IMG/VR virus record: IMGVR_UViG_3300020381_001145
Span: 1-30,515 of that record
Length of the DNA stretch: 30,515 bases
DNA from: a virus
Lineage: Duplodnaviria; Caudoviricetes
Reading direction: 5' to 3' (one strand)
Under the pieces are notes generated by a model that saw only the letters and a program-made list of their open reading frames with translations, was not told the origin of the DNA and ran no database searches. Below are positions 1-30,515 of this stretch, piece after piece. The number at the start of each line of letters is the position of its first letter. The stretch's first letter is position 1. The position numbers and the translations under genes are program-made.

Positions 1-164
1 AAAGTTTGACAGCCGATACAGATTTAAATATATCAGCTAACGGCACAGGGGCTGTAAATATTAGTGATGTAATAGTTAAACTACCAAATTTACCTACATC
101 TGATCCATCAGTGGCAGGTCAGCTATGGCGTTCCGGTAATGATGTAAAAATTAGCACTGGCTAA
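1..164 (+). CDS. 3' end of putative virion structural/tail-fibre-like protein (partial)
   Basis: My translation from base 3: SLTADTDLNISANGTGAVNISDVIVKLPNLPTSDPSVAGQLWRSGNDVKISTG*, TAA at 162-164. The beta-rich 'DLNISANGTGAV' segment and terminal 'LPTSDPxVAGQLW...KIS.G' resemble C-termini of phage fibre/structural proteins (recognition, not searched). Confidence 0.6.
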   Translation, partial: SLTADTDLNISANGTGAVNISDVIVKLPNLPTSDPSVAGQLWRSGNDVKISTG

Positions 165-838
165 TTAATAGTTCTTCCTAAGTAAAACATCTTTTTATTA
201 ATATCTAAAGTGACTAAATCTCCAGTGGCAAACCAGTCATCATAAATGCATATAGGACCTTTTACATATAACTGGTCCTCTACTATTTTGTAATCACACC
301 AAAATGTATCACCTACGATTCTTTCATCTGCTTTATCGCCAGGCAAATATTTTTTATTGATTGTCCAAGGCCCTATTTCGCTCATTCCCCAATTGGCATA
401 TACTGTTGCACCTTTATCAATAAATGCTTGTATATGTGTTGCAGGTATAGGATCACTGCCCATAGCAATGTGTTTTCCGTTTAAATCTGCTGTTTTAAAG
501 CCCTTGGTTTTAATAACTGCTTCACACATAGCAGGAGGCAGGAAGGTATGTGTATGACGCTCAAAACGTTGTAAAAAGGTAAATGCATTGAACTTTTCAA
601 TGGTAACATTGCATCCTATTGCATAGCCAGGTAATGATTGTAGTAATAATCCCCCTGCATGTGTCATTCTTGTAACTGTAAATATACTTGATTTTGAAGA
701 TATATCTTGTCCTTTTATTGCAACTTGAATACATGCGTTTAAATTATCTGGTGTTCTAAATATATCTTTTGAAGGGCCAGTTGTACCGCTACTGGAAATG
801 GTAACTCCTTCATTTAAAATCTTTCCAAAATCTATCAT
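161..838 (-). CDS. Minimal ANL-superfamily adenylation (AMP-binding) protein
   Basis: P-loop SSGTTGPSK, A4-like MTHAGGL, A5-like WGMSE, A7 ATGDL and A8 YLGR; only 225 aa, ending at the hinge. Confidence 0.8.
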   Translation of the reverse strand: MIDFGKILNEGVTISSSGTTGPSKDIFRTPDNLNACIQVAIKGQDISSKSSIFTVTRMTHAGGLLLQSLPGYAIGCNVTIEKFNAFTFLQRFERHTHTFLPPAMCEAVIKTKGFKTADLNGKHIAMGSDPIPATHIQAFIDKGATVYANWGMSEIGPWTINKKYLPGDKADERIVGDTFWCDYKIVEDQLYVKGPICIYDDWFATGDLVTLDINKKMFYLGRTIN

Positions 839-1869
839 TTTTCATACTTCTCTAAACTTCGATTTATAGTATTGTTTACTCGAACAAACAAAGAGGTCTT
901 ATTAAGCTGGTTAATGTGTTCTGCGCCTGTATATGTGCATACACTCCTTAAACCCCCTTGTATTTGCTTTAAAATGCTTTTAATAGACCCTTTACAGGGT
1001 ATTAATAGGTCTCTACCTTCGTTAGGTCTATATTCTTGTTCAGTAGGTTTAGTTTGGTTATACATTTTGGTGCTACCCAAACCGTAAAGATTTACAAACT
1101 TTCTCCCATCAATTTCTACTATATTATCACACTCTTCTGCTCTACTTACCATGCCTGCAATCATAACCATTTCCGCACCACCGGCTATTGCCTTACATAC
1201 ATCTCCTGACGTTACACATCCACCATCGGATATAATTTTGACTTTGTTGTTTTTTGCTTCTTCATAACAATCCATAATTGCACTCAATTGAGGCACACCA
1301 ACACCAACTTCAGATCTTGTTCTACATGCCGCTCCACTTCCTACGCCTACTTTTACAAAATTTGCACCTGCATCAGCAAATAATTTTATAGGCTTAGGAG
1401 TTGCTATATTTCCAGCACTTATTTGTATATGAGGGAAAGTTTCCCTATAGAGTTTTATTGTTTCTATCATGCCTTGTATATTCGCATATACGTTAGCTAT
1501 ATCTACGTTAATAAAACCTATGTCTGGATACTTAGAAACTACTTCTACTGTTTTTTCCCTATCCCAAGTTTGTACTCCACTTGTAATTGCAATAAATCTT
1601 CGGTCTGGCATTTTTTCCAATTCGATAATATGTTCTTTTGCTGTATATTCTTTATGTAGAAATGTAAAAATACGTAGCGAAGATAAAATATTTGCAATTT
1701 TATAAGTACCAGTACTCAACATATTTGCAACTATTACAGGAGTAGCCTTAGTGCCAAGCCAATCTATTTCTATGTCTACACTTTTCCTAGTAAGTGGTAT
1801 TTCACTTATACGAGGTTCTATAAGCACATCGCTAAAATCTAATTTTATATCTTCTTTAACTTTATTCAT
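835..1869 (-). CDS. guaC: GMP reductase (IMPDH/GMPR family)
   Basis: N-terminal KLDFSDVLIEP, DIAN, AGNIAT, catalytic loop KVGVGSGAACRTR, GVGVPQLSAI, ISDGG, YRPNEG, GGLRSVCTYTGA. 344 aa with no CBS domains, matching the GuaC layout. Confidence 0.85.
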   Translation of the reverse strand: MNKVKEDIKLDFSDVLIEPRISEIPLTRKSVDIEIDWLGTKATPVIVANMLSTGTYKIANILSSLRIFTFLHKEYTAKEHIIELEKMPDRRFIAITSGVQTWDREKTVEVVSKYPDIGFINVDIANVYANIQGMIETIKLYRETFPHIQISAGNIATPKPIKLFADAGANFVKVGVGSGAACRTRSEVGVGVPQLSAIMDCYEEAKNNKVKIISDGGCVTSGDVCKAIAGGAEMVMIAGMVSRAEECDNIVEIDGRKFVNLYGLGSTKMYNQTKPTEQEYRPNEGRDLLIPCKGSIKSILKQIQGGLRSVCTYTGAEHINQLNKTSLFVRVNNTINRSLEKYEK

Positions 1870-3233
1870 GTAATATTATGCTTTTCTTTAATTCTTTCTA
1901 TTGCTTTAAAAGTTGGCACTTCAATATCTTTGTTGTAATTAAATATATTAGGTTTATTAATAAATTTAAATCCAAGAGCTGTCTGAAACATAAAGTATAT
2001 ATGAGTAGTTTTATATAAACATTCCAAACTGCCTTTTTCGAATATTTTCATTTGTTCTTGTAATTTTTCCGGAATTGGTTTTTTCTTTTGATCTTGCCAA
2101 AATTTAGTGTCGTTCCTAGTTGCATATCTATAGTGCATAATTGTGAAATCTCTAAAATCTTCCACCATTTCGTATACGTAGTCATTATAATCTTTTAAGG
2201 TTTTTTTATCTTCTAGAACCTTAACTAAAAAATCTGCACTATAAATGCTACTATGTAAAGCAGTTGCTTCTAACGGTTCGATAAAACTTGCACTTAGTCC
2301 AATATAAGCATAATTGTTTTTTGCGATTTCTTTGTAACAGCCAGGAGTATATCTTACCTCTTTAATTGGCTTGACTTTATGTCCTAACCATTTTTCTGCT
2401 TCATCAATAATTTCTTCTGCTGTTGTATGTTTATTGCTAAAATTATATCCGCTTCCACAATTATCTGTCTTAGGCACTTCCCACATCCAACCGTTTTTCA
2501 TCGCACGTGAAACTGTGTAATTTTGTTTTTTTGTTGGAAGTAAAAAAGGCACTGCTCCGTCTATGTCTAACCATTCTGTATAGCTTTGGAACTCGTGTTC
2601 AAAAACTTTGTTAAATAATCTAGCAAATCCTGTGCAATCGATGTAAAAATCTGCTGAATAAGTATTTTCTTTACCCTTTAAATTTATAATTTTTCCATTT
2701 TCATTTACAACTTCTTCAATAGTGTCTATTTCTTCAAAAACCTTATTGGTTGCTAAACATCTATCTCTAAAAAACTTTCCTACATTTTTTCCGTCAAAGT
2801 GGTATGTGTGCCTTTTTACTTCTGTATAGTCGTGTATTCCGTGTTTCATTAAAAATGCATTTACACTATAATCTTCTATATTTGCATCTTCTTCAAGCAT
2901 TTTATACATAACATCTATGTCTTTTTTTGCTCCTCCTCTTATACCATCGTAATACCATCCGTCTACAAATTTCCTAAAACTTTTACCTTCACCTTGCCAG
3001 TTTTCAAAAAGTATTCCTAGCTTTACAGTTGAATTTGTTTTTTCCAAAAATTCTTTGTCATCGCCTTTAAGTATTACATCATTAAGTGATCCGGTTGCAC
3101 CTTCTCCTGTACCTATTATTGGAATTTCTCCACTGTAAATAATTTTTATAGATTTTACTGCATAAGATTTTGATAATTGGTATGCTGTTGTCCAGGCCGC
3201 TGTACCGCCGCCTACAATAATAATATTTTTCAT
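1866..3233 (-). CDS. Flavin-dependent halogenase (tryptophan halogenase family)
   Basis: GGGTAAW FAD motif, IGTGEGAT, TVKLGILFENW (catalytic Lys position), YHFDG, ADFYIDCTGF, GWMWEVP (WxWxIP variant), FIEPLEAT, HY...RNDTKFW. Confidence 0.88.
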   Translation of the reverse strand: MKNIIIVGGGTAAWTTAYQLSKSYAVKSIKIIYSGEIPIIGTGEGATGSLNDVILKGDDKEFLEKTNSTVKLGILFENWQGEGKSFRKFVDGWYYDGIRGGAKKDIDVMYKMLEEDANIEDYSVNAFLMKHGIHDYTEVKRHTYHFDGKNVGKFFRDRCLATNKVFEEIDTIEEVVNENGKIINLKGKENTYSADFYIDCTGFARLFNKVFEHEFQSYTEWLDIDGAVPFLLPTKKQNYTVSRAMKNGWMWEVPKTDNCGSGYNFSNKHTTAEEIIDEAEKWLGHKVKPIKEVRYTPGCYKEIAKNNYAYIGLSASFIEPLEATALHSSIYSADFLVKVLEDKKTLKDYNDYVYEMVEDFRDFTIMHYRYATRNDTKFWQDQKKKPIPEKLQEQMKIFEKGSLECLYKTTHIYFMFQTALGFKFINKPNIFNYNKDIEVPTFKAIERIKEKHNIT

Positions 3234-3766
3234 ATTTCAATTTCCTTTAACACTTCATTAAATTTTTTATTACATGTCCAACTTATAATAATCCTTACGT
3301 CATCATTATAATTAATTACATCATGCGGTAGATCATTCCTTATTACTGTTGGCACTTTTAATACATGTTCAAAGTCAAGTTCTAAATCACTTGTTACAAA
3401 TCCGATCATGTCATTTGATTTTAAATTTACTTTGGGTTTAGCATCACTAAAACTGTCGTATACTGTTCCATACTTTAATTCATTTTTAGATTTATAAAAC
3501 CTTGTTACCTTGGTGTCGTCACAATTATGATAAGGGATATTTAAGCTACAAGATCTTCCTAAGTCTACATGCTTAGGCCAAGATCCTTTTTTCAATTGAT
3601 AAATGTTGAACCTATTACCGAGCCATGAATATTGAGAATCATAGTTACAAACTATCTTATCATCATCCATCATATACCAATTATCAGGAATCTGTTTGCT
3701 AACAAATTTAAATAATTCTTTTGTGTCAAAGTTAGGTAATTCAAAAACATAGTTGTTTCTAATCAT
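3230..3766 (-). CDS. Putative Fe(II)/2OG-type dioxygenase (DSBH fold)
   Basis: HVD, then SLNIP strand, distal His in PHDV, and terminal Arg strand RIIISW; ATGA-coupled to both neighbours. Confidence 0.55.
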   Translation of the reverse strand: MIRNNYVFELPNFDTKELFKFVSKQIPDNWYMMDDDKIVCNYDSQYSWLGNRFNIYQLKKGSWPKHVDLGRSCSLNIPYHNCDDTKVTRFYKSKNELKYGTVYDSFSDAKPKVNLKSNDMIGFVTSDLELDFEHVLKVPTVIRNDLPHDVINYNDDVRIIISWTCNKKFNEVLKEIEI

Positions 3767-4263
3767 ATTCTTATCTCCGGATTGTATATTTTACTTACTT
3801 CATTAAATTTAGTTTCAAAACATAACTGAAATACTATTCTTGTATTATTTTTATTAGTAAAATGTACATTATGGTACTGTTCACCAGTATTCAGTATTGC
3901 ACCATATCCTTCATAATTTACGTTACATACAAATTCTTTTTTTTCGTCATAAAAATATGTTTCGCCGCAATTTTCTGTAAGGGCAAAACTAATTACAGTC
4001 TGCCTAGGTATCCAAGTACCATCAAATTCATTATGCCTATTTTTGTCTTTGTGTACAGTGCTACCAGATTCATTTACTCGTAATAGCTGACAAACACAAT
4101 CTAAGCCTGTTGTATTAAATTTTTGTAATTTGTTTGGCAGTTTAAAAAAACTAATCTTGTAGCTTATATCTACAAAAGCATCTGGCTCATATGCCAGATC
4201 TAATAATTTTTGTCTTGTGCTTTCTTTGATAGCATACGGAACAAGTTTATAATAAGGTTCCAT
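3763..4263 (-). CDS. Putative Fe(II)/2OG-type dioxygenase (DSBH fold)
   Basis: VHKD, ISFAL, ETYFY, distal His in YHNV, and RIVFQL strand. Confidence 0.55.
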   Translation of the reverse strand: MEPYYKLVPYAIKESTRQKLLDLAYEPDAFVDISYKISFFKLPNKLQKFNTTGLDCVCQLLRVNESGSTVHKDKNRHNEFDGTWIPRQTVISFALTENCGETYFYDEKKEFVCNVNYEGYGAILNTGEQYHNVHFTNKNNTRIVFQLCFETKFNEVSKIYNPEIRI

Positions 4264-5068
4264 ATTCTTCTTTTTTCTTTTCGTATTCTTTAATAAGCAT
4301 TTTTGTTACAGGTCCAGAGCGTTGTGTTTCTGTTACTCCACCGCTTGAACTTGTAATAAAAACTTCATCTGCATTTAAGAATTCTTTTTTTGAAATAGGG
4401 CGTCTAGTCAAGTCTACTATATCTTCCACTACACTCATAGTTACCCCTTTGAGAACATTTTTGTCGGCTGTATAAACTTTACTGTCAATAACAATACCTA
4501 CATTAAATCCAGGCCCTTCAGTAATGTTACCATCAACATCTACTAATACTGTTGTGTCACTTCCTTCTGGTCTATTACGCTGGCTCATTGTGAGTTCGAT
4601 CCAAGCCATGTTCTTATAAGTCTGTCCGTAGTAGTCATCATTTACACGTTTAATTTCTTCGTCTAACGCAATATTAATAATAGACTTGCTTCCGATTGGA
4701 TAACTTGGTTTAATGTACATAGCAAAATGTGTTTTACAATTTTCTAAATCTCTAGGATTACCACTGGGAGGATAACCTCTCCATGCCAAGAACCAAACAA
4801 ATGCATTCTCAATTGGATTATGCCTTGCTAGTTCCTTAGTAATTTCTAGAGGATCAACATCAGGAAGGATAAGTCCGTATCTTTCTGCACTGTTTTTAAA
4901 TCTTTGTAAATGTCTTTCGTAACAAAATGCTTTGCCGTTGTATACAGGCATTACATCATAAGTACTATCACAATGTATGAATCCAAAGTCTAAAACTGTT
5001 GGTCCAATTTCTCTTAATGGTTTATATTCTCCATTTTTGTATGCTATTAAGTCTAAAACGTCAGTCAT
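4247..5068 (-). CDS. PLP-dependent aminotransferase class IV, (R)-amine-transaminase-like
   Basis: GFIHCDSTYDV, HLQRF, AFVWFLAWRG, catalytic YKNMAW, TEGPGFNV, VLKGVT, ADEVFITSSSGGV. Start moved to ATG 5068 (8-bp overlap with upstream stop); the track gives 5098. Confidence 0.85.
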   Translation of the reverse strand: MTDVLDLIAYKNGEYKPLREIGPTVLDFGFIHCDSTYDVMPVYNGKAFCYERHLQRFKNSAERYGLILPDVDPLEITKELARHNPIENAFVWFLAWRGYPPSGNPRDLENCKTHFAMYIKPSYPIGSKSIINIALDEEIKRVNDDYYGQTYKNMAWIELTMSQRNRPEGSDTTVLVDVDGNITEGPGFNVGIVIDSKVYTADKNVLKGVTMSVVEDIVDLTRRPISKKEFLNADEVFITSSSGGVTETQRSGPVTKMLIKEYEKKKEEYGTLL

Positions 5069-5318
5069 CAAAATGTACCTTTTTAAGTTGAGGATCATCA
5101 GGCAATTTTTTCTTAAGTTCTTTGAGTCTATTAATTCTCCACTCTAATAATTTAAAGTCTAAAACCCAAGGAAAAATAGCGTGAATCAAACTTCCTATTG
5201 TTACTCCTAGTAGAAAAAAGAATTCGTCTATCGCCAGCCTAAAGTGCCACCAGTATCCAGCATCTTCTCTACCTGCCTTTTGTTTTGCTTCTTGTAAATG
5301 TTTAGGATTGTACCACAT
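5061..5318 (-). CDS. Small putative membrane protein (DUF6356-like)
   Basis: 85 aa with YWWHFRLA, a hydrophobic stretch FFFLLGVTIGSLIHAIFPW, and overlap coupling in the operon; family name is from recollection. Confidence 0.5.
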   Translation of the reverse strand: MWYNPKHLQEAKQKAGREDAGYWWHFRLAIDEFFFLLGVTIGSLIHAIFPWVLDFKLLEWRINRLKELKKKLPDDPQLKKVHFDD

Positions 5319-5859
5319 AGCTTCCTTTCAACAAATTTCTGCGTCTATTGTATTCTTTAATATTAAGTTTCCACACGGCTTGATGTGTATAGTATAACTC
5401 CATTTCACTATGCTTGTCAAGTATTTTTTGCTTTGCAAGTAAACCCATAAGTTTATGATTCCTGGCGGCTTTGCCATTTGAGTGTTCATGGTGTGTGTTA
5501 GTAGTAATATATAGCTCATCAGTAGGACAATATTCTATAAACTTGGGAATGATTTCTCTTTGTGTAATACTGTTCCAGTCTCCTTTACCTAAGCCTAGAA
5601 AAGTATCATTTTGTGGAAGTTCACAACCTCTAAAAAGTATTCGCCAAGCATTTTCACCTACCTCAGGTAATGGATGACATCCTGCCACTGCAACAATAGT
5701 TTCATTTACTATTGCACAAAAGTATTCTCCACGTTCTTTACACCAATCATACTTCATGGCTTTTAGACTAGAATTATTTTGGTAACCAAGTTTTTCTGCT
5801 TGTTTACAGAAAACTTCTAGTTGAGGTATAAGATCATCTGTAATAACTTTTATTTGCAT
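5302..5859 (-). CDS. Putative GNAT-fold acyltransferase
   Basis: YFCAIVNETIVAVAGCH hairpin followed by WRILFRGCELP and LYITTN strands, consistent with GNAT topology; no canonical motif A seen. Confidence 0.45.
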   Translation of the reverse strand: MQIKVITDDLIPQLEVFCKQAEKLGYQNNSSLKAMKYDWCKERGEYFCAIVNETIVAVAGCHPLPEVGENAWRILFRGCELPQNDTFLGLGKGDWNSITQREIIPKFIEYCPTDELYITTNTHHEHSNGKAARNHKLMGLLAKQKILDKHSEMELYYTHQAVWKLNIKEYNRRRNLLKGSYVVQS

Positions 5860-6536
5860 ATTGTAAATATACTCAATCCTATTTTACGTTCAATACCTTT
5901 ATTTGTAAAATCAGTGCTACAGTGTAAAGCAAGACTATCAAAGCACAAAACACTTCCTATTGCCCAGTCCAATGTTGTGTTAACACTGAGACCTTCAGTC
6001 CATTTATCTTTTAAATGGGAAAGATATTCTGCTTTGAAAGTGTTTTTGATGCCATTTGTATTGCAATTATGTACCTGCGAGTATTCTGTCACTGGAGCAT
6101 TATAATAAACGTTTTCTTTCTTTTGTTGTCCGTTAAAAAATTTAGCAGGTCCTCCATAATAGTATTGATCAAAAATTACTAACTTCACATCATTACTATT
6201 GCCGTATATTTTTAGAGGCAATGTAAATGCTTTGTACGATTGAGGTAAATTGAATTCATCATCATTATGAATTATATGCGGCATATTCACATCAAAAAAA
6301 TGTGCATATCTAACTTCAAATGGTAACAGTTTTTCCTGCATCGTATCAATTATAGGTACAAGTAAATCATGATTGTTGTTTATTTTAAGAACTTTAGGTC
6401 CTGTGTTTTTTTGTATAATGTTGTCTTCATTATCAAAATAGTGTTTTAATAACGAACTAGTGTCAACTATATTGTCTACAACAAAAGGATCGCTGTGAGT
6501 GAGTTTAAGTTTGTTTATACTAGCTGTATCTCGCAT
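5850..6536 (-). CDS. Putative Fe(II)-dependent dioxygenase (paralog of 13841-14647)
   Basis: PHIIHND, FTLPL, DWAIGSVLCFDSLALHCS, RKIGLSIFT. Start moved to ATG 6536 (TGATG 1-bp overlap); the track gives 6581. Confidence 0.55.
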   Translation of the reverse strand: MRDTASINKLKLTHSDPFVVDNIVDTSSLLKHYFDNEDNIIQKNTGPKVLKINNNHDLLVPIIDTMQEKLLPFEVRYAHFFDVNMPHIIHNDDEFNLPQSYKAFTLPLKIYGNSNDVKLVIFDQYYYGGPAKFFNGQQKKENVYYNAPVTEYSQVHNCNTNGIKNTFKAEYLSHLKDKWTEGLSVNTTLDWAIGSVLCFDSLALHCSTDFTNKGIERKIGLSIFTICK

Positions 6537-7294
6537 CAATAATATTTTAATACACTCATAAGTTTCATAACATTTTCCCATGTCTTAGGCACGTTAAGAA
6601 TTAAGTGATAACTTTCGTCTGTCCAGCTGTGGGTTCTATGCACTTTCCGTGTATCTACATAATAAGTTCCGTTTACTACTACGGGTCTACGTTCTTCAGA
6701 TAACCACCATTCGTAGCAGTCTGTTCCTGTCTGTTTACCTATAAATGTAATAATTCTAAAACAATCACGAGTCAAATTAGGACTATCTCTATGCGGCGGG
6801 AACCAACCACCCTGGTTGGCTTTTATTATCATAGTCCGCCCAAGCCCGCCCCAATAATCTAAGATATTGTGTAAACTTGTAAGTCTACTATATGCTTCTG
6901 TGGGAGTATTGAAATCTTTTTCTAAAAGAAATCTCCCGGCACGTTTTATAGCTTCTGGTCTGCTTAGACTGTCGTTTGGTTTGTCGCCTTCTAAACCTAC
7001 AAGTAACAATCCCTCTCTGTCATTACTGATTCCATCTCTACGCAAGTATGGTACAAACCAATCTGATATTTGTGCTATTTCTTTTTCAAATATTCTATGA
7101 TTAAATGGAAAGTTTAATAATTCAAAATCACCTAATGCTTGTAGTTGCATTTCACATTTCATATCTTCATCTGTTGGTTCGAAAATTTGAGGAGATTCTA
7201 CCCATCGGCTATGATAGTCTGCAACTTTTTTCCTATTAGACTTTTCTATTATATTAAGAGGTTTTCCGTTTTTATCAACTTTTTTTAAATCCAT
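6536..7294 (-). CDS. Fe(II)/2OG dioxygenase, Asp/Asn beta-hydroxylase-like
   Basis: GGWFPPHRD, FRII, GTYYVDTRKVHRTHS, YHLILNV: HxD...H pattern as in the Asp_Arg_Hydrox-like family. Confidence 0.65.
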   Translation of the reverse strand: MDLKKVDKNGKPLNIIEKSNRKKVADYHSRWVESPQIFEPTDEDMKCEMQLQALGDFELLNFPFNHRIFEKEIAQISDWFVPYLRRDGISNDREGLLLVGLEGDKPNDSLSRPEAIKRAGRFLLEKDFNTPTEAYSRLTSLHNILDYWGGLGRTMIIKANQGGWFPPHRDSPNLTRDCFRIITFIGKQTGTDCYEWWLSEERRPVVVNGTYYVDTRKVHRTHSWTDESYHLILNVPKTWENVMKLMSVLKYY

Positions 7295-7298
7295 ATAA

Positions 7299-9124: not shown

Positions 9125-9154
9125 ATTTTAACACCTTTTTGGTATCATGCTAAG

Positions 9155-9161
9155 TATTTAT
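9155..9161 (-). promoter_or_regulatory. Putative T4-type late promoter core ATAAATA (leftward)
   Basis: Plus-strand TATTTAT 9155-9161 in the divergent intergenic region, about 30 nt upstream of ATG 9124, which has an AAGGTG SD-like site. Confidence 0.55.
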
Positions 9162-9166
9162 TGGTG

Positions 9167-9173
9167 ATAAATA
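9167..9173 (+). promoter_or_regulatory. Putative T4-type late promoter core ATAAATA (rightward)
   Basis: ATAAATA 9167-9173, 28 nt upstream of ATG 9202, with an AGGA SD-like site in between. Confidence 0.55.
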
Positions 9174-9201
9174 TTTCTAACAATAGGACTGGCTTGTAAA
9201 A

Positions 9202-9852: not shown

Positions 9853-9863
9853 GAGGAAAGCCT

Positions 9864-22527: not shown

Positions 22528-22543
22528 TCTTATTATCTATGTA

Positions 22544-22551
22544 TATAAATA
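22544..22551 (+). promoter_or_regulatory. T4-type late promoter TATAAATA
   Basis: Exact TATAAATA in the 29-bp divergent gap, 5 nt upstream of ATG 22557. A one-mismatch TATACATA lies on the minus strand at 22538-22545. Confidence 0.65.
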
Positions 22552-22556
22552 TACTT

Positions 22557-23843
22557 ATGCAAAATAAATCCCCGTCAAATTCTAATCCGGACTTAACAAA
22601 ACTTACAGAACAATACGGCAGTAATTTTTGTCCTGTACCGTTTGAGCATGTAATCATATACGGTGACGAAGTAATGACCTGTTGTAAGACCAAAGTTCCT
22701 ATCGGAAATCTCAAAGATAACACACTCAAAGAAATATATGAAGGTCCTATCATAGAACAAGTAAGACAGCAATTTTTAAAAAACGAAAAACCAACACAAT
22801 GTAAAAACTGTTGGAAAGAAGAAAATGAAACTGGTTTGCCTGCGAATGTGCGTGTAAGTGCAAGTAAAATGAGTGCAGAAACTTGGACTGATGACAGTGT
22901 GACAAAACCACGAATAAAATTCTTAGACGTAGTATGGAGTAACAAATGTAACTTTGCGTGTATGGGGTGTACCCCATTGCTGAGTTCAACTATCAACAAA
23001 TTATTTAAAAAGCAATATAGTAAGTTATATAGCGATCCCGATAAAGATTATTTTGTAGATTATCAAGACTGGGAAACAAATGTTGCTCATATAAAAAGTT
23101 ATATAGAGGAATACGGAGATGAGTTACATTACATACATTTTCAAGGAGGAGAACCGTTTCTAAATAACAGCCTGTTTGATATTTTAGATCTAATGATAGA
23201 GAAAAAGATGTTTAACACTAAAATTTTATTCCATACAAATGGTAGTGTAAGTAAAACACACAAAGGCAAAGATCTAATAAAAGAATATCTTGCGAAGTGG
23301 GGAGAACAAGCTAGGGTAAATTTTAGTCTTGACGGTATCGGAACAAGAGGAGAGTATATTAGATACGGTTATCGACAGAAGACTTGGGAAAGAAATTTTG
23401 CTAAATCTTATGACAATATTCGCACAAGTATTGCCGCAAGAGCAAACGTTTTCAATATTTTGCACTTGGAAGAACTTGCATCTTATTGTAACAATAAAAA
23501 TACAAAAACTGATAAGCGTTTTGGCAGTCTGGGTCATTGGGGCAATAGTGAAAGCAATCTCGGACTAATCAAGATACACGATCCTACTAGAATCAAAGCA
23601 ATAGATTCTTTGAAAAGAATATTACAAACAGGAGATAGTCCTAAGCCTTGGCGTACTAAAATACCAAATTACATCAACTGGTTGGAAAATGATCACATGC
23701 CAGAAAAATGGGCTGTGTACAGATGGGCAAGTAGCCTAAGTGACTTTGATCAAGCTAGAGGCACAGACTTTGACCAAACGTTTCCTGAACTAGTAGAGTT
23801 CAAAAATTATGCATTTGATTGGGCCCAAGATTATAAGAATTGA
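22557..23843 (+). CDS. N-terminal-twitch radical SAM protein, class A (inverted relative to neighbours)
   Basis: FCPVPF, TCC, CKNCW, CNFACMGC, QGGEP, HTNG, EYIRYG, FDQARGTDFDQTFPE. Start moved to ATG 22557 behind the TATAAATA box; the track gives 22539. Confidence 0.92.
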   Translation: MQNKSPSNSNPDLTKLTEQYGSNFCPVPFEHVIIYGDEVMTCCKTKVPIGNLKDNTLKEIYEGPIIEQVRQQFLKNEKPTQCKNCWKEENETGLPANVRVSASKMSAETWTDDSVTKPRIKFLDVVWSNKCNFACMGCTPLLSSTINKLFKKQYSKLYSDPDKDYFVDYQDWETNVAHIKSYIEEYGDELHYIHFQGGEPFLNNSLFDILDLMIEKKMFNTKILFHTNGSVSKTHKGKDLIKEYLAKWGEQARVNFSLDGIGTRGEYIRYGYRQKTWERNFAKSYDNIRTSIAARANVFNILHLEELASYCNNKNTKTDKRFGSLGHWGNSESNLGLIKIHDPTRIKAIDSLKRILQTGDSPKPWRTKIPNYINWLENDHMPEKWAVYRWASSLSDFDQARGTDFDQTFPELVEFKNYAFDWAQDYKN

Positions 23844-24898
23844 CTTGCAAAGGGATCAAACTCTGCACCACATTTCATTGCACACACTTTAAGTTTTCCT
23901 TCGCCACAACTGTTTTTACTCCAACTGTTTTGTATATCGTCAAATATACCTGTTGCAAAAACATTAGCCAGGCCATTACGAGCATCTAATGCCTTTTTAT
24001 CTGGAATAAAATCCCATATCTGTTCTACCTTAGGATCTTTATGCCACCATTTGTACATGCGTCCAGCAGTCCAACAACAGGGCAATGCTAGTCCTTCTGC
24101 TGTGATAAACAGACTGTTTTCTTTCTTAACTTTGCAAACGATAGGAGCCGCGTCATAATATGCGTCCATGCTACCGTATTTTTCTAGTATGACTTCTTGT
24201 TTGGTAAGTGCTTTGTTTTGATATTTTTCTTCTGGCTTTTTAAGCTCTGCTGTATCTTTGCCTTTACGATCTTTGGCTTGATGCTTTTCTTTTTTGTTTG
24301 AATTTGTGTCAATAAATCTTCCAGTCTTCTTTTTCATAAAACGTTCTACACCCCATTCATTAGCAAGTGCTTCTGCTTGTTCAACTTGGTGTTGGTTATG
24401 CTCAAATATCAAATAGTCCCAACGAGCTCTCCCGCCTGCGTTTATAAATGTTCGCATGTTGCGTTCTACATTGTCCCAAACTACATTTTGTCTATATATG
24501 TGATTGGTATCTGCGAGACCATCCACAGAAAAAATAACACAACCGTTGCGGCCAAACACCTTAGCAAGGTTAGTCCAAAATTTTTCATCTTTCGCTCCTC
24601 CATTTGTATTCATACTCAACCACATGGTAGGATTAAGTTCTCTAAAGTAACTGAATATTTCTAATGTATCTTTGGCAACAATAGGATCACCTAAATTTCC
24701 ACACATATACATAGTGTCTAACTGTTTTATAAAGGAAGCAGTAAATATGTCTTTGCAGTCTTTAAGTGACAGTTCATCTAAATTGATATGCGGATTTATA
24801 CCTTCACCATTCATATTACGATCACACATAGGACATGCGGCTTGACAGTTTTGTGTTACTTCTAGATGTATTGTTTTAATGTCTTTGTATCTATACAT
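23831..24898 (-). CDS. Radical SAM protein, class B (C-terminal twitch)
   Basis: CQAACPMCDR, MCGNLGDP, NTNGG, DGLADTNHIYR, WDYLIFEHNQHQ, LFITAEGLALPCCW...CAMKCG. Confidence 0.93.
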   Translation of the reverse strand: MYRYKDIKTIHLEVTQNCQAACPMCDRNMNGEGINPHINLDELSLKDCKDIFTASFIKQLDTMYMCGNLGDPIVAKDTLEIFSYFRELNPTMWLSMNTNGGAKDEKFWTNLAKVFGRNGCVIFSVDGLADTNHIYRQNVVWDNVERNMRTFINAGGRARWDYLIFEHNQHQVEQAEALANEWGVERFMKKKTGRFIDTNSNKKEKHQAKDRKGKDTAELKKPEEKYQNKALTKQEVILEKYGSMDAYYDAAPIVCKVKKENSLFITAEGLALPCCWTAGRMYKWWHKDPKVEQIWDFIPDKKALDARNGLANVFATGIFDDIQNSWSKNSCGEGKLKVCAMKCGAEFDPFASQFL

Positions 24899-25374
24899 TA
24901 TAGCTTCCTCATTAAATTTTCAAGCTCTATGACACCAAAGGAATACTTATAGTCTATAGGATTTTTACAGAAATGGAAGCTGTCAGGATCTATAAGTTTT
25001 ATTTTATTATCTTTAGTAATAACAAAATTATCTATAGTAAGATCATCATGTGTCCAATATATGTTCTTTTCCTTTTTACTGTATTCAACACAATCTAGTA
25101 TCACTTTGAAATAACTTTCACAAATATTTAAACATAAATCTCTGTTTAAATTTTCGGTACTTTTTAAATAATTATTTACTGGACTGAAAATATCGACTTT
25201 TTCTAAAATCAATTTACTAGGCTCAAAATCTAATATTTTAACGTACAACGGATTGTCAGCTGAAAACTCTAAATAAGATTCGTACCATCCCTGTGTTTTG
25301 GTTTTATTCTTAAGATGCTTTACTACATAATCATCAAATATTTCAATAGTAGTGTTTTCTTTTTCAATTTTCAT
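24898..25374 (-). CDS. Small protein-kinase-like-fold phosphotransferase
   Basis: YVVK (beta3 Lys), LILEKV hinge, HDDLTIDN catalytic loop, LIDPD Mg-binding loop; 158 aa. Confidence 0.7.
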   Translation of the reverse strand: MKIEKENTTIEIFDDYVVKHLKNKTKTQGWYESYLEFSADNPLYVKILDFEPSKLILEKVDIFSPVNNYLKSTENLNRDLCLNICESYFKVILDCVEYSKKEKNIYWTHDDLTIDNFVITKDNKIKLIDPDSFHFCKNPIDYKYSFGVIELENLMRKL

Positions 25375-25592
25375 TCAAGTATCAACTTTATATCTTTACC
25401 GGGTCCTGTCCGACTAGGTAGATCTCCGTATTTTTCAACATACCATTTTATAACGGCCTTGTACCAATTTTGGCTGTTGTGATGTGCTTCTTTGTTAAAC
25501 TGATATATGTTGTTGTTAGTTGCCTCCATAGTACTTAACACTCTTGCACTTTCAGTTTGTAGCTCTCGAATAGTTAGATTATCTAATTCCAA
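25371..25592 (-). CDS. Hypothetical protein (73 aa)
   Basis: ATG start, overlap-coupled to both neighbours in the operon; no motif recognised. Confidence 0.7.
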   Translation of the reverse strand: MELDNLTIRELQTESARVLSTMEATNNNIYQFNKEAHHNSQNWYKAVIKWYVEKYGDLPSRTGPGKDIKLILE

Positions 25593-26496
25593 TTCTCATG
25601 TACCTCGTATATTTTTCTATATCAAGCTCTCCTGTAAACAATACTTTACTTAAAGGTGCCATTTGCTCAAAATGTAAACTATCCTTTACACAATTCACGT
25701 GTTCGTCAACATCCATAAAATCATTACTTTGTAATACAACTAGTTTACCAGTGGGTATTTTATTATACCACGTATCAAAGTTTTCGATATGTTCACAACT
25801 AGTGTTAATTATAGTGTCAGGTATATCAGTTATAGGATAACTCATACGATCATTTGCTTTACTCCAAAACTGCCAAGTGTGTTCCCTATAATCTATATCC
25901 ATAATGTCTTGCGTTATACTTTTGAATTTCCATTGATCTACAAACCAAGGTTTGTTAAAAGTTTCTGCAATATCTACACATGTTCGATCAATATCAAAAC
26001 TTCTTATTTTATCTACCTTTATATCACTTTCGAATATCATAGTGGCAAGAGTAGCATACCATCCTGCACATAAGAATACTGTACCTAAATCTACATTACA
26101 TTTTTTTAGTTCGTCAACTAACCAAAGTTTACTTTGTATTTGTCCTCTACTAAAACAATCGTTCCAAATTTTAGTTTCATTTACAAAAAAGTTTTTAAAT
26201 GCTTTTGTAAACTGTGTTTCCACAATATTATCTAGCAATGGCCAAAGTTTCCAAGTATTATCTTCTAATATAAGTTTACGTAAATCCTCATCATTTATCA
26301 ATCTAAATACACTATGCAAATTCTTATCAATTACTGCTTTACATAAATCTTCTTTATCTCCACTAACAGTCGTAGGAAGTAATCTAAAAATACTACTAAT
26401 ATCTTTATCAATATATGCTCTTCGAAGGTCAGAAATTTTACTATTAGTGGGATATAGTAATTCAAATCGATCTAGTAATTCAAATGTCTTGAGCAT
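25579..26496 (-). CDS. Class I SAM-dependent methyltransferase-like protein with N-terminal helical repeats
   Basis: SRGQIQSKLWL, motif I-like VFLCAGWYATLA, motif II IRSFDID, TQDI, IINTSCEH, LQSN. ATG 26496 with AAGGA upstream. Confidence 0.65.
   Translation of the reverse strand: MLKTFELLDRFELLYPTNSKISDLRRAYIDKDISSIFRLLPTTVSGDKEDLCKAVIDKNLHSVFRLINDEDLRKLILEDNTWKLWPLLDNIVETQFTKAFKNFFVNETKIWNDCFSRGQIQSKLWLVDELKKCNVDLGTVFLCAGWYATLATMIFESDIKVDKIRSFDIDRTCVDIAETFNKPWFVDQWKFKSITQDIMDIDYREHTWQFWSKANDRMSYPITDIPDTIINTSCEHIENFDTWYNKIPTGKLVVLQSNDFMDVDEHVNCVKDSLHFEQMAPLSKVLFTGELDIEKYTRYMRIGIR
26233..26430 (-). repeat. Three imperfect 18-aa protein repeats in the methyltransferase N-terminus
   Basis: DLRRAYIDKDISSIFRLL / DLCKAVIDKNLHSVFRLI / DLRKLILEDNTWKLWPLL. 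Confidence 0.65.
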
Positions 26497-27169
26497 CAAA
26501 CTGTTCCTTTAGCCAGTCAAAATCGTTGATTAACCCCAGATTAGCCCCGCTAGAAACGCCAAACTCCATACCAGCGGTAGCGCCTGCCAAAGCGTATTTG
26601 CCATATAATCTATCGTGTCCCACGGTTGTCCAAGTCTTGAGTCTTTCATTTGTTTCCTCCTCTTTTTGTCTGTCTATAGTTTTACTTGATAATTTTGCAC
26701 ATTCTCTAAAAGCACTTTTCCATGTGTTAAAAGGATCGGTGTTGAATGCTGTGATATTTGATATTTCATTTATTACTTTAAAATTTTTTGAAATACTTGT
26801 AGTCATATCATTTGTGCTGGTGTTCATATTTTGTGCTAGCCATGTTGGGAATAATTTTACACCTCCATAGCCGTATATTAAATCATTGATAGGATTCATA
26901 CATCGATAAACATGTACTGTATCCTTATCTTCAGTTTTGTAATCGAAATTAAAATCATCTACAATTACTGCATCTCCGTCTACAACAAAAAAATAATCTG
27001 TATTTGCTATAGTTGCCGCTTTCTTATGAGCATTGTGTATTCCTTTAATATTTTTTACCCTTCTAATTCTTTCACCAAATAGTCCTACACTATTAAATCT
27101 TTCGTAAAGATTTATAAAATTTTCTTCAGCGTTAGGTTCATTATAACTTATAAAAATTATATCATACAT
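26480..27169 (-). CDS. Putative GT-A-fold glycosyltransferase
   Basis: DIIFISYNEP, GIHNAH, FFVVDGD (DxD), GYGGVKLF, WKSAFRECAKL. Confidence 0.65.
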   Translation of the reverse strand: MYDIIFISYNEPNAEENFINLYERFNSVGLFGERIRRVKNIKGIHNAHKKAATIANTDYFFVVDGDAVIVDDFNFDYKTEDKDTVHVYRCMNPINDLIYGYGGVKLFPTWLAQNMNTSTNDMTTSISKNFKVINEISNITAFNTDPFNTWKSAFRECAKLSSKTIDRQKEEETNERLKTWTTVGHDRLYGKYALAGATAGMEFGVSSGANLGLINDFDWLKEQFDAQDI

Positions 27170-28530
27170 GCTTTACAATCCTCATAAAATTTATTCATTT
27201 CAGGAAAAGTTTTTAAAAAATCAGTACCACGCCTTTTATCATATTGTTGAATCCATTCATAAAACATACGTCTACCTTCTATAGCTTCTTTTTCAAACTC
27301 TTCTGGTTTGTCTTGTCTAACATCTAAGTCTTGAACTATTCTTATCATTTTTTGTGTTTCTCTATCATCAAATTTATTTTTTTTCATAAAAGTTATGCAA
27401 GGATAAAGATATTTTTCAACTAAATCATGTGTGGCAATTTTTGCATCCAAAAATCCAGGACTTCTTACATACGGTATATCTACAAGTATTCTTTGGTAGT
27501 GTGTTTTATTATCCAAATAAATGTCTTTAAGATCAGAAACGTATTTCAAAAACTTATAAAAACTTGGTATACTTAGGACGTTAAATGCACTCATAAAACT
27601 ACAGTTACCTTTAGTAGTCTTTAAAAAGTATTCAACATTGCTTGTAAACATTTTCCAATCCATACCAAATCTATTATATTCTGCTTGAGCTCCTATGCTT
27701 TCAGCACTTACAAAAAGTACAAATTTACTGATACATTTTTTATCTTCTAATATCTTTACCTTGTCAACAAACTGTTTCCATTTATCCCCTGGTGGACATG
27801 CGTTACTGTTAATTGATAATTCTAACTTAGGTTGAGGATTATTCAATAAGTGATCCATTACCTTCATAGTGTGTTTGCTCATTAAAGGTTCACCGCCTGT
27901 AATTCTAAAAGTGTGCATGTGTTTCACTGCTTCAGGAAACCATTTCCAAAAAGCTTCTATGTAAGGATTGTGTTCACGATTAGGTATTTGTTTTTGGTAC
28001 TGATCAGGTTCATTATATCTCCAATTAATTAAACTAAACATATACGGTCCATGTTCACTTATTTCGTCAGTCCATTTACTGCTGAAAGCAGGACCACAGT
28101 ATCCGCATTTAAAATTACATACATTACTAAAACTAACCTCTACATATCTTGGATATACATCTTCGTCTCCGGTCATTTTTGATATCTTATCAAAATCCGG
28201 CCAACTAAAAGGATCTCTACTTTTCCAAGTTCTATCACTATGCATACCAGTATTATCTTCGATACGCCAACAGTAATCACATTCTCCTGGACGTTCTCCT
28301 CGGAGCATTTGTTTTCTTACATTCTTTTTAAATCCTGTGTTATGTAATGCTCCTGGATTTGTAGCAAGATCGTTTAAATCTATAGGGTGTGCCTTAGGAT
28401 GATGACAACTATGTGTAAGTCCTGATCCAAGATGCATAGTAACCTGTGTCCATTTAGCTAGGCAAAAGCCACAGCCAACAGAATTTAACTTCTCTAAAAC
28501 ATGTTCAGGTTCTTGCCATTCAAATGTCAT
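27157..28530 (-). CDS. N-terminal-twitch radical SAM protein, class A
   Basis: FCLAKW, HSCHH, CDYCW, CNFKCGYCGPAFSSKW, TGGEP, NSN, YDKRRGTDFLKTFPE. Confidence 0.93.
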   Translation of the reverse strand: MTFEWQEPEHVLEKLNSVGCGFCLAKWTQVTMHLGSGLTHSCHHPKAHPIDLNDLATNPGALHNTGFKKNVRKQMLRGERPGECDYCWRIEDNTGMHSDRTWKSRDPFSWPDFDKISKMTGDEDVYPRYVEVSFSNVCNFKCGYCGPAFSSKWTDEISEHGPYMFSLINWRYNEPDQYQKQIPNREHNPYIEAFWKWFPEAVKHMHTFRITGGEPLMSKHTMKVMDHLLNNPQPKLELSINSNACPPGDKWKQFVDKVKILEDKKCISKFVLFVSAESIGAQAEYNRFGMDWKMFTSNVEYFLKTTKGNCSFMSAFNVLSIPSFYKFLKYVSDLKDIYLDNKTHYQRILVDIPYVRSPGFLDAKIATHDLVEKYLYPCITFMKKNKFDDRETQKMIRIVQDLDVRQDKPEEFEKEAIEGRRMFYEWIQQYDKRRGTDFLKTFPEMNKFYEDCKACMI

Positions 28531-28531
28531 T

Positions 28532-29452
28532 CTATTCTACGTCAATCACAAATTGTTGATTGCTACTCCTTGCGGGGTTTTGATATACAGTTTTAAAAAA
28601 TGCACTCTGTTCTTCATTAAGAGGTTGCACGGCAATAGGTATTCCTAATTTATCTACCAAATCACTTCCATAATTAAATATTTCTGTGTGTAATACATCT
28701 TCTGGCATTTGATCTCTATCTGCCCAAAGTTCATTTAAATGATCAAAATCTCTTACATTGACATAATCCCAGTCGGTCAACATCGTCATTACTAATCCTT
28801 CTCTGGCTCCTGCAATAGCCCAGTATCCATTCTTTACATCTGATCCTACCATTAACCAGATCCATAACCTATGTAGGTTTTTCCAATGTCCGTTTAAAAA
28901 CTCTTCATGTGATGGTTTAACTCCTCTATCTAGAGCCATCTTTACGCCTTCTCTAAAACCAGCTCTCCAGGCTTGATGTGGTGTTTCGTTATTATGTACA
29001 TCACTATAACAACTATTCTGTTGAATATATTGTATGTCCCAACAAAAATCAACCTGTGCATGTGGATTATCAGCATCTGCATTTTCGTGAGTTTTCATAT
29101 TTAAAACAAATTCTTTAGGCCAACATTTTAGTCCACCATTACCATACAATAAACCATTAATACTATTTCTTCCGCACCAACTAATTACACTACTTGTAAG
29201 ATCTGTATGCTCATCAAAATCAAGAACTTGATTAATAAAATCTTGTCTTATAGTATTGTCACCATCAACAGTCACAAATCTATCTGTTTCGCTTAATTCT
29301 GCACATGCTTTGTGTGCCGCATCTGAGCCTTTCACACCATGCACTCTTTTAGCCCAAGGAACTTTTGTTAATAAATCTGCATAATTTTTTTCTGCATTGG
29401 GTTCATCATAACTAAGATATATAATATCAATTTCTGCAATTTTTACCTTCAT
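28532..29452 (-). CDS. Putative GT-A-fold glycosyltransferase (paralog of 26480-27169)
   Basis: DIIYLSYDEP, GSDAAH, FVTVDGD, YGNGGLKCW, WRAGFREGVKM. Start moved to ATG 29452 (ATGA overlap); the track gives 29473. Confidence 0.65.
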   Translation of the reverse strand: MKVKIAEIDIIYLSYDEPNAEKNYADLLTKVPWAKRVHGVKGSDAAHKACAELSETDRFVTVDGDNTIRQDFINQVLDFDEHTDLTSSVISWCGRNSINGLLYGNGGLKCWPKEFVLNMKTHENADADNPHAQVDFCWDIQYIQQNSCYSDVHNNETPHQAWRAGFREGVKMALDRGVKPSHEEFLNGHWKNLHRLWIWLMVGSDVKNGYWAIAGAREGLVMTMLTDWDYVNVRDFDHLNELWADRDQMPEDVLHTEIFNYGSDLVDKLGIPIAVQPLNEEQSAFFKTVYQNPARSSNQQFVIDVE

Positions 29453-29991
29453 TTTGTTTCTCCATATACACAACTTGCTAGATCAACTGTTGTATAGATA
29501 TCGTAGCTATTGTGTATGCTTATAGATTTTTTTGTTTTTTCAGTAAGATCAAAACTTACCATATCATACAAAATATGAGGATCATCTTTTTTGGTAAAAC
29601 TAAAAGTGATCTTCTTGTTTACATCAATATGTGTTTTTTTCATAACATCAATTAGTTCGTCGCTAGTATTAATATAACATGTTTTGTCTTTCTTGTCAAT
29701 GTTTAATAGTATATCATAATCTATTTTACTAGACACTTTTGGTAATTTCTGATACTGAGAAGTTTCTTCAAGTACTGTTACTTTTTTTAATTTATATTCC
29801 TTACTTTTCCTATTATATACAATCAAATAATCTGACATCTTTTCTTTTAATGTTTTTATAGGTTCTACTTCTTTGTCTGACACTTCTATATAACTATCTC
29901 CTTCATTGTGCGATGGACCTATGCTTAATATTTGTCCTGTCTTTTGATCAAAAGTAACATACTGTTTTATATCTACTTTGTAGTGCTTCAT
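29449..29991 (-). CDS. Hypothetical protein
   Basis: 180-aa ORF, ATGA-coupled on both sides; no motif recognised. Confidence 0.7.
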   Translation of the reverse strand: MKHYKVDIKQYVTFDQKTGQILSIGPSHNEGDSYIEVSDKEVEPIKTLKEKMSDYLIVYNRKSKEYKLKKVTVLEETSQYQKLPKVSSKIDYDILLNIDKKDKTCYINTSDELIDVMKKTHIDVNKKITFSFTKKDDPHILYDMVSFDLTEKTKKSISIHNSYDIYTTVDLASCVYGETK

Positions 29992-30515
29992 AATACTTTG
30001 CTTTCATATTTTTTTATCACATTTTTACAAAACTTATTTTCTGTGTAATGAAAAATTCCTTGTTGAAGGAAATTTCCTACTTTTAATTCTAAATCATCTG
30101 TAATATAATAAGGAATAGAATCTGTCCAATTTAATCCTATATTACTTACATTTTGTGCTTTACTTTTCATATGAGTAAAGTTTATAAAATTATTTGTAAT
30201 ATTATTTAAATTTACGTGTAAAGATGTAATTGCATGATTTATATCCATACTAGACAATATAAATGTTTCTCCTTTGGCATTGGTTACTTTAGGTTTTGAT
30301 TTTTTTACAAATTTATTATAGTAATCTATATGATTATGACATACATTTTCTAATTGTTTGTAATAATTAAGTGCTATGTCGTTTTGTTTAAAATAATGTA
30401 TACCACAATACAAATTAGGTAATTTATTTTCAACAAATACTTTTCTATAAAAATCACTTGTAACTTCTTGATTTCTATAAGTAAAAACTTTACTTGTCAA
30501 AAATACATCATATCT
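29988..30515 (-). CDS. Partial (5'-truncated) putative glycosyltransferase-like protein
   Basis: Frame is open to the window edge (RYDVFLTSK...). LYCGIHYFK, SMD, FTHMK and FHYTE resemble the C-terminal half of GT8-like folds; any DxD region would lie outside the window. Confidence 0.4.
   Translation of the reverse strand, partial: RYDVFLTSKVFTYRNQEVTSDFYRKVFVENKLPNLYCGIHYFKQNDIALNYYKQLENVCHNHIDYYNKFVKKSKPKVTNAKGETFILSSMDINHAITSLHVNLNNITNNFINFTHMKSKAQNVSNIGLNWTDSIPYYITDDLELKVGNFLQQGIFHYTENKFCKNVIKKYESKVL

Follow-up and report, generated by a model that had tools for sequence, protein, structure and literature searches.

The 30,515-bp virus contig analysed here (IMG/VR record IMGVR_UViG_3300020381_001145; "the window" is this complete record, with a GC content of ~34%) carries an island of radical S-adenosylmethionine (SAM) enzymes, glycosyltransferases (GTs) and tailoring enzymes. 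Judged against its sequence relatives, the contig represents one instance of an island that recurs throughout a clade of RaK2-like jumbo myophages, and the island is real, widespread and chemically unexplored. Since a glycogenin/GT8-like gene pair and the link to fibre genes were found on the phage side only, and the editing genes on both the phage and the bacterial side, the island can be divided into a phage-only head and a module held in common with bacteria. We put at roughly 0.5 the probability that it serves, inside the infected cell, to make a chemically edited glycan carried by fibre or baseplate proteins of the virion.

A fixed head behind fibre genes

At least 366 viral stretches encode a relative of the core GT of the window (gene 28532; genes are named by their first coordinate, Table 1), and 80 of these were fetched for comparison of their loci, which carry L numbers here as genomes carry G numbers. 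All 71 loci with at least 3.8 kb of upstream DNA have a fibre-like gene and the GT8-like pair ahead of the core GT, and a radical SAM enzyme with an N-terminal twitch domain (N-twitch) follows it by no more than three genes in 59 of the 63 loci with enough downstream DNA; the co-occurrence of island genes on which the original prediction depended is thus conserved. The order within the head is fixed, running from a 115-aa protein through two glycogenin/GT8-like GTs, a 180-aa protein and a GT2-like GT to the N-twitch radical SAM enzyme. In total the head comprises four GT-A genes, the two small proteins, the radical SAM gene and usually a methyltransferase, and is followed by swappable cassettes. 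Genes upstream of it match tail-collar, tail-fibre and baseplate families, and the islands of the related phages sit between fibre genes and an Mtd_N gene.

That the contig derives from a phage, as was first proposed, is secure: it is a virus record and its relatives carry gp23, portal, gp25 and a late sigma factor, which rules out a cellular origin. The major capsid protein (MCP) of the relatives is 67–71% identical to those of RaK2-like jumbo phages, and CheckV implies a genome of about 360 kb. Five related islands of 28–37 kb contain 6–12 radical SAM motifs each, and a scan of 125 selected cassette proteins revealed UDP-glucose dehydrogenase, epimerase, DegT, carbamoyl-, acetyl- and sulfotransferases and B12-dependent radical SAM enzymes. 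Among 50,697 records of cultured phages the head occurs only in RsoM2USA, a phage of the soil bacterium Ralstonia, where the same order stands behind a fibre-like gene. RsoM2USA also has a second N-twitch radical SAM gene, which sits with three DUF6071 genes and a carbamoyltransferase at a distance of ~90 kb from the head (L082:13991-19567), and the baseplate region of the related genome G003 includes a 4,987-aa gene (L092:1082-16045).

Glycosyltransferases and small proteins of the head

The two to three GT-like genes of the original prediction are three GT-A glycosyltransferases (28532, 26480 and 29988). The DxD motif of 28532 (D63/D65) is invariant in 65 of 65 alignment rows. The top Foldseek match of its predicted structure is the PBCV-1 capsid glycosyltransferase (E 1e-4, TM 0.27–0.37), and in the VIA comparison B4GALNT1, STIV A197 and a Leptospira GT tied at Z ~10 (up to 10.4; rmsd 3.1, 140 residues aligned), with nucleotidyltransferases of the same fold within about 1.5 Z of these best matches. 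For the modelled protein these comparisons settle the GT-A fold, not the acceptor. PBCV-1 and STIV A197 likewise represent virus-encoded GT-A folds, yet at 12–14% identity the resemblance is at the level of the fold.

The right end of the contig truncates the island inside the GT8-like gene 29988, whose family profile matches 19 glycogenin sequences (best E 5e-7) over its N-terminal 100 positions only. In the relatives, a second GT8-like paralogue lies just upstream of the 29988 counterpart (profile link 99.8%). GT8 also includes lipopolysaccharide (LPS) transferases (PMC7029224; here and below, papers are cited for the accessible part of their text). No hydrophobic segment was found among the related GT sequences (0/96, 0/58 and 0/52). 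The 180-aa protein has no PDB fold match at E≤0.001 and three uncharacterised viral matches, a result that does not amount to evidence for a novel fold. A reading of the 115-aa protein as DUF4376 or as a fibre chaperone was no more than a lead (Atlas score 0.88) and was set aside; 0 of 15 members match DUF4376 in Pfam.

Three subfamilies of radical SAM enzymes

The 13 radical SAM genes with 14 domains seen originally stand: 14 CX3CX2C motifs occur in the 13 genes, against 0.17 expected from shuffles, which rules out a frame artefact or chance motifs. Pfam Radical_SAM matches 12 of the 13 at E≤0.01, and the thirteenth (10692) matches a PHROG radical SAM family. They fall into three subfamilies with a mutual identity of 21–30%. 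Six genes (seven domains) exceed the 170-bit cut-off of NF033640 (N_Twi_rSAM) and have an N-terminal cysteine cluster; the seven others comprise five with C-terminal cysteine clusters, one of them seemingly split from its SPASM gene, and two (8012 and 15723) of a third subfamily. From their sequences, 10460–10729 and 10692–11414 are likely the halves of that split C-twitch enzyme. The true start of 22539 is likely the ATG just past TATAAATA at 22544.

In BtrN, NeoN and HygY, which act on sugars or small aminocyclitols, the twitch auxiliary domain is C-terminal to the core. The original prediction cited these auxiliary-cluster radical SAM enzymes as characterised examples; in the window, five genes have C-terminal cysteine clusters, and six of the 13 differ from this type in carrying the twitch N-terminally. 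A PDB sequence search with one C-type and one N-type enzyme did not match BtrN, NeoN or HygY. Among the best five models per protein, all models of SPASM maturases of ribosomally synthesised peptides scored far below cut-off, and the best window score for prokaryotic viperin (NF038283) was 42 bits against a cut-off of 180. Our literature search found no assayed member of NF033640.

Gene layout and tailoring genes

Coding sequence occupies 99.7% of the window, in 34 genes of at least 80 aa, another of 73 aa and a truncated one at 1–164. The genes were predicted to be translationally coupled, and 29 of the 33 junctions do overlap or are spaced by ≤4 nt; they form five transcription units rather than one. 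Hydrophobic or membrane segments are missing in 33 of the 34 window proteins, which are soluble; the sole weak segment is in the 85-aa protein 5061..5318. Genes overlooked in the earlier annotation are 835–1869, 5061–5318, 10460–10729, 25371–25592 and 29449–29991.

Pfam profiles agree with the adenylation, halogenase and fold-type IV aminotransferase calls, the AMP-binding protein having just 225 aa. Two of the three nitroreductase-fold genes are placed by Pfam and the third (7299) is linked to them by profile. Other calls hold in part. One of the five dioxygenase-like genes, 6536, is placed by family, its homologues matching PF05118; the other four are putative, from an HxD...H motif. The methyltransferase, kinase and GNAT calls have weak profile matches as their strongest support (Methyltransf_25 at E 5e-4 through a homologue, a PHROG at E 1e-3, and E 0.028). 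The virion-type gene said to abut the island is labelled as such from its position, where relatives have the Mtd_N fibre gene, and from a C-terminal motif that we take to be virion-type; gene 1–164 has no significant match in the sequence pool searched (best E 0.14).

Table 1. Features of the window, and of the related bacterial arrays (last row)
Position	Strand	Feature	Evidence
1..164	+	Probable virion-fibre gene bounding the island, 3' end, convergent	Open frame to TAA at 162-164; Mtd_N gene there in relatives
161..838	-	Short AMP-binding (adenylation) protein, 225 aa	PF00501 E 9e-16; 69% identical copy in G003
835..1869	-	GMP reductase-like	PF00478 E 9e-59; NF003470 284 bits, below cut-off
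1866..3233	-	Flavin-dependent tryptophan-halogenase-family enzyme	PF04820 E 8e-82
3230..3766	-	Putative Fe(II)/2-oxoglutarate (2OG) oxygenase	HVD...H motif only
3763..4263	-	Putative Fe(II)/2OG oxygenase	HKD...H motif; weak phrog_274 match, labelled otherwise
4247..5098	-	Fold-type IV aminotransferase	PF01063 E 3e-29
5061..5318	-	85-aa DUF6356-like protein	Weak hydrophobic segment
5302..5859	-	Probable GNAT acyltransferase	PF00583 E 0.028
5850..6581	-	Putative Fe(II)/2OG oxygenase, paralogue of 13841	HND...H motif, profile link; Bdellovibrionota homologue
6536..7294	-	AspH-like Fe(II)/2OG hydroxylase	Homologues match PF05118
7299..8012	-	Nitroreductase-fold protein	Profile link to 9202 and 9864; PF00881 E 0.088
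8012..9124	-	Radical SAM, third subfamily	62-68% identical to Bdellovibrionota copies
9155..9175	.	Divergent pair of late-type TAAATA boxes	Boxes at 9160(-) and 9168(+)
9202..10460	+	Two nitroreductase-family genes (9202-9852, 9864-10460)	PF00881 E 2.5e-9 and 1e-8
10460..11414	+	Stand-alone SPASM/twitch gene (10460-10729) and short radical SAM (10692-11414)	
11301..13844	-	Double N-twitch radical SAM, two domains	NF033640 567 bits, 2 stretches
13841..14647	-	Putative Fe(II)/2OG oxygenase	HID...H motif; Bdellovibrionota homologue
14640..15722	-	Radical SAM, C-terminal-cysteine (twitch-like) type	
15723..16907	-	Radical SAM, third subfamily	
16897..18306	-	N-twitch radical SAM	NF033640 425 bits; 59-61% identical to Bdellovibrionota copies
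18306..19247	-	Radical SAM, C-twitch type	
19247..21482	-	Two N-twitch radical SAM genes (19247-20323, 20313-21482)	NF033640 193 and 225 bits
21475..22527	-	Radical SAM, C-twitch type	
22539..23843	+	N-twitch radical SAM, opposite strand	NF033640 226 bits; TATAAATA at 22544
23831..24898	-	Radical SAM, C-twitch type	42-47% identical to Bdellovibrionota copies
24898..25374	-	Small kinase-like protein	phrog_3297 E 1e-3; homologue PF03881 E 0.002
25371..25592	-	73-aa conserved gene	Family with 16 members in relatives
25579..26499	-	Probable class I methyltransferase	Alignment; homologue matches PF13649 (Methyltransf_25) E 5e-4
26480..27169	-	GT2-like GT-A glycosyltransferase, short paralogue	35% identical to 28532, DxD in common
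27157..28530	-	Core N-twitch radical SAM	NF033640 313 bits
28532..29452	-	Core GT-A glycosyltransferase, helical C-terminal part	AlphaFold2 pLDDT 88, Foldseek, VIA, DxD
29449..29991	-	180-aa two-domain protein of the phage-only head	
29988..30515	-	Glycogenin/GT8-like glycosyltransferase, 3' part, cut by contig end	90% identical to full-length L001 copy
G010:C1:745-775 kb; G012:C2:2131-2157 kb; G013:C3:27-47 kb; G014:C15:638-665 kb		Bdellovibrionota chromosomal arrays	10-15 radical SAM genes

A counterpart in Bdellovibrionota

A GTDB scan yielded 76 fetched loci, 24 of them titled Bdellovibrionota and one of these 24 a phage-type contig. Seven of the 24 contain the GT together with orthologues of 16897 (59–61% identity), 23831 (42–47%) and 8012 (62–65%), and five such genomes hold 9–19 NF033640 genes over the cut-off each (hand count), against none in 14 control genomes. 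The arrays of G010–G014 resemble the island in their three radical SAM subfamilies, GT2-like pair, and methyltransferase, oxygenase and nitroreductase families. They differ in including membrane proteins and in the absence of recognisable fibre genes and of the GT8 pair, which is found in none of six module-bearing Bdellovibrionota genomes (metagenome-assembled genomes, MAGs, of unstated completeness) versus four of four phage-bearing controls; the arrays are uncharacterised. The 180-aa protein has no match within the Bdellovibrionota loci. Distribution of the module is patchy: when 80 further genomes from the phylum were sampled, one had an 8012 orthologue.

In unrooted trees the phage orthologues of 16897 form one clade (98/94), and the GTs of Bdellovibrionota form two separate groups placed among phage-type sequences, a pattern that hints at repeated exchange between phages and Bdellovibrionota. 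Bdellovibrionota as the host of the phages was considered and set aside: its support is limited to one binned phage contig (L117), and RsoM2USA infects Ralstonia. Several GTDB MAGs include contigs with phage-type island genes (L107-L120, L143, L154, L158), one of 335 kb; these are likely mis-binned phage DNA.

Bacterial GT homologues lie among GT2/GT4 genes. In a Rhodobacter MAG a homologue is directly upstream of type VI secretion system IcmF and VgrG genes (L142:9983-10915). Actinomycete loci L161-L182 have a homologue of GT 26480, in an operon of helix-turn-helix regulator, GT4, GT and GT2 in both that were scanned (L167, L179). A Photorhabdus cluster (L157:1333-16291) combines radical SAM/SPASM, PcrB-like, NUDIX, GT4, a GT 26480 homologue, GT2s and an ABC (ATP-binding cassette) exporter.

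Promoters and timing

The window has late-like boxes at 9160(-), 9168(+) and 22544(+), and the unit running from 22527 to 11301 has none within 80 nt. Across six islands TAAATA precedes 13 of 20 unit-first genes versus 16 of 192 internal genes (Fisher p 1.6e-8); this comparison is qualified by the non-independence of divergent pairs, the AT-richness of intergenic DNA and two possibly spurious open reading frames among the 20. Two upstream structural genes have the same box before them in every region compared (21 of 21 and 38 of 38). At the start of the head, before the 115-aa gene, in 48 distinct related regions (L001-L081), TTGACA-17-TATACT/TATAAT occurs in 27 (0.8 expected) and TAAATA in 21 (6.6 expected), three regions having both types and three neither; the nearest relatives of the window and RsoM2USA have the late box at the head. 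The late expression originally proposed suits this subclade and many cassettes, and does not suit the 27 of 48 relatives with a sigma70-type promoter at the head. Seawater metatranscriptome contigs cover 22 of 30 bins of 12000–30515 in one library and 10 and 21 in two others; contigs from RNA libraries cannot reveal strand, timing or true transcription.

A glycan on the virion fibres as the preferred reading

In the proposed scheme, the phage-only glycogenin/GT8-like pair, possibly with the 115-aa and 180-aa proteins as adaptors, would place the first sugar or sugars on Ser/Thr-rich fibre proteins. A weak sign of such priming is the Ser+Thr content of the neighbouring fibre families, 18–23% versus 10–14% in the island enzymes. 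The two GT2-like enzymes, which bacterial glycan loci share, would then extend the chain from nucleoside diphosphate sugars made by host or phage. The three radical SAM subfamilies may act on sugar positions by oxidation, epimerisation or deoxygenation, decoration of these positions may fall to the enzymes that transfer methyl, acyl, amino, phospho and hydroxyl groups, and the nitroreductase-fold flavoproteins could supply electrons. Swapping of cassettes would make the coat differ from phage to phage. Precedents exist, with glycoproteins detected in XacN1, a member of the same broad group (PMC5852040), and virion glycosylation in mycobacteriophages (as cited in PMC12619734).

Virion glycosylation with radical tailoring, as first proposed, remains the best reading. 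In its favour are the fibre linkage, the order kept in RsoM2USA, the confinement of the GT8 pair to the phage side, the sugar-modifying genes of related cassettes, the GT2/GT4 neighbours of bacterial GT homologues, the late-type boxes and the solubility of the window proteins. The idea of one multi-step pathway is kept as to a glycan-type product and is replaced, as to its unity, by a fixed head with swappable cassettes over hundreds of phage loci, half of the island recurring in Bdellovibrionota. Several points weigh against a virion glycan. The acceptor and reactions of the island enzymes are predictions from sequence, the likeness to the PBCV-1 capsid GT is confined to the fold, and VIA ties several GT-A enzymes and nucleotidyltransferases. 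High Ser+Thr is common among virion proteins (17% in the MCP). XacN1 is without this GT family, and the accessible part of the RsoM2USA virion gel report, where glycans were not sought, names no glycoprotein (PMC8504454). The bacterial set of radical SAM, GT, methyltransferase and oxygenase genes has no fibre genes nearby and stands beside membrane proteins; desaturases, a fatty-acid hydroxylase and a TctA transporter in related cassettes would fit lipid or small-molecule work; and, given the sigma70-type promoter in 27 of 48 relatives, timing is not uniformly late.

Other products and acceptors

The main rival, which we consider distinctly less probable than a virion glycan, is editing of the host envelope, in which cytoplasmic precursors of LPS/O-antigen, capsule or lipids would be altered, blocking superinfection or remodelling the cell. 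Such editing has already been proposed in print for pelagimyophages, whose tail-fibre islands are rich in GT8 (PMC7029224). The chromosomal module of some Bdellovibrionota, beside GT2 and membrane proteins, is consistent with it, as are the sigma70-type head promoters and the desaturases and fatty-acid hydroxylase of the relatives. It is harder to reconcile with the conservation of the head in both marine phages and a Ralstonia phage from soil, given that the envelopes of their hosts must be different, and with cassettes that mostly start with late boxes. Serotype conversion of the Gtr type involves a flippase and a membrane glycosyltransferase; the window has neither, 33 of its 34 proteins being without a hydrophobic segment.

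We think it improbable that the island, or its cassettes separately, makes diffusible small molecules or glycosides. The adenylation, aminotransferase, 85-aa and GNAT genes (161, 4247, 5061 and 5302) do travel as a block, which recurs in G003 at 69–89% identity; in the window a halogenase and a GMP reductase are inserted in it, and this left cassette may supply substituents or form a separate small pathway. TctA, TauD and SAM decarboxylase in the relatives, and the small aminocyclitol substrates of characterised twitch enzymes, also point this way. Such a pathway would not explain why the GT head is invariably tied to fibre genes, the window encodes no exporter, and 13 freely swapped enzymes at 21–30% identity fit combinatorial decoration better than one linear route.

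DNA hypermodification, in which the GTs and radical SAM enzymes would decorate a modified base of phage DNA, was an option in the original prediction that has since lost ground, and we consider DNA an unlikely acceptor. A base that could be glycosylated probably exists in RsoM2USA, whose ORF10 (L183:7607-8443; listed as a putative thymidylate synthase in PMC8504454) is dCMP-hydroxymethylase-like with T4 gp42 as its best PDB match (E 1e-22). Its ORF2 (L183:1890-3020) is a T4 beta-glucosyltransferase (PF09198 E 7e-24), so that the DNA likely contains glucosyl-hydroxymethylcytosine. A modified base may also exist in marine relatives, which have FolE and QueE beside the polymerase, and the window itself encodes a GMP reductase. 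The RsoM2USA glucosyltransferase, however, adjoins the hydroxymethylase and lies >120 kb from the GT head, and the head is kept in a 335-kb marine contig and in G003, where neither hydroxymethylase nor glucosyltransferase was found. No C5-methyltransferase was found in RsoM2USA or three related fragments (control positive in 9 of 14), and the scanned neighbours of bacterial GT homologues include no DNA-modifying proteins. A head that stays constant while the DNA handle changes argues against DNA as the acceptor, with a small probability left for extension of a modified base.

The genes by the polymerase form a possible 7-deazaguanine DNA modification cluster of FolE, QueE, a 516-aa gene resembling tRNA-guanine transglycosylase (TGT) and a 357-aa gene (L089:7223-17585 in G003; G007:C57:133300-140950). 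The 516-aa gene has no match in Pfam, PHROGs, NCBIfam, PADLOC or PDB; its TGT motifs would suggest DpdA, an identification on which we do not rely.

Neutral or weakly selected accumulation of unrelated auxiliary genes, suggested by the five transcription units and by the variable content of related islands, is largely refuted by conservation and very improbable: all genes are intact, GC content at third codon positions is uniform (0.19–0.32), orthologues are 60–87% identical between phages, the head is fixed in 71 of 71 loci, and the same gene combination recurs in bacteria.

Relation to known systems

Tail-fibre islands with GTs and radical SAM enzymes, and phage genomes with 12 radical SAM genes, are already published. 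The host recognition cluster of pelagi- and cyanomyophages (PMC7029224) is likewise a hypervariable tail-fibre island with GTs, GT8 being commonest, and swappable radical SAM cassettes. It differs in belonging to HTVC008M- or cyanomyophage-type genomes, where it is located between vrlC and gp14, rather than to a RaK2-like jumbo clade; the islands described here have a fixed four-GT head and 6–14 radical SAM domains. Host O-chain editing is proposed there, and enzyme subfamilies are unnamed in the accessible text. The marine T4-like TARA_ERS488813_N000010 also has 12 radical SAM genes, in a 183-kb genome and with an Fe-S metabolism interpretation, and the accessible main text does not contain the word "glycosyltransferase" (PMC5332604). 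In the literature examined, as far as accessible, no radical SAM array is reported for virion glycosylation in PBCV-1, STIV, mycobacteriophages or XacN1. Four core GTs have been noted in another lineage, Moraphage (PMC12619734), and the accessible text on RsoM2USA makes no mention of radical SAM enzymes (PMC8504454). Our literature search, in which subscription journals were mostly uncovered, found no description of the head, its Bdellovibrionota counterpart, a product, a reaction or an assay. New here are the two-part anatomy, the test against DNA, and a cultured carrier of the minimal set.

Conclusion

In conclusion, hundreds of aquatic jumbo-phage loci devote about 30 kb to this island. As a tentative wider proposal, one we hold as possible rather than probable, jumbo phages and predatory Bdellovibrionota, which both prey on Gram-negative cells, may exchange a combinatorial radical-chemistry kit for glycan editing, to which the phages would have added glycogenin-like priming that anchors the glycan on tail fibres, giving a swappable coat that tunes attachment or concealment. 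If this is true, radical SAM enzymes with an N-terminal twitch would add a new class to the glycan editors. The separation of a phage-only, putatively priming head from an editing module shared with bacteria points to a few enzymes to assay first, and RsoM2USA is a cultured phage with the minimal set. Should the product be a virion glycan, these arrays would be a large source of new radical sugar chemistry, and phage host recognition and persistence at sea would hinge on a chemistry that genome-based host prediction ignores.

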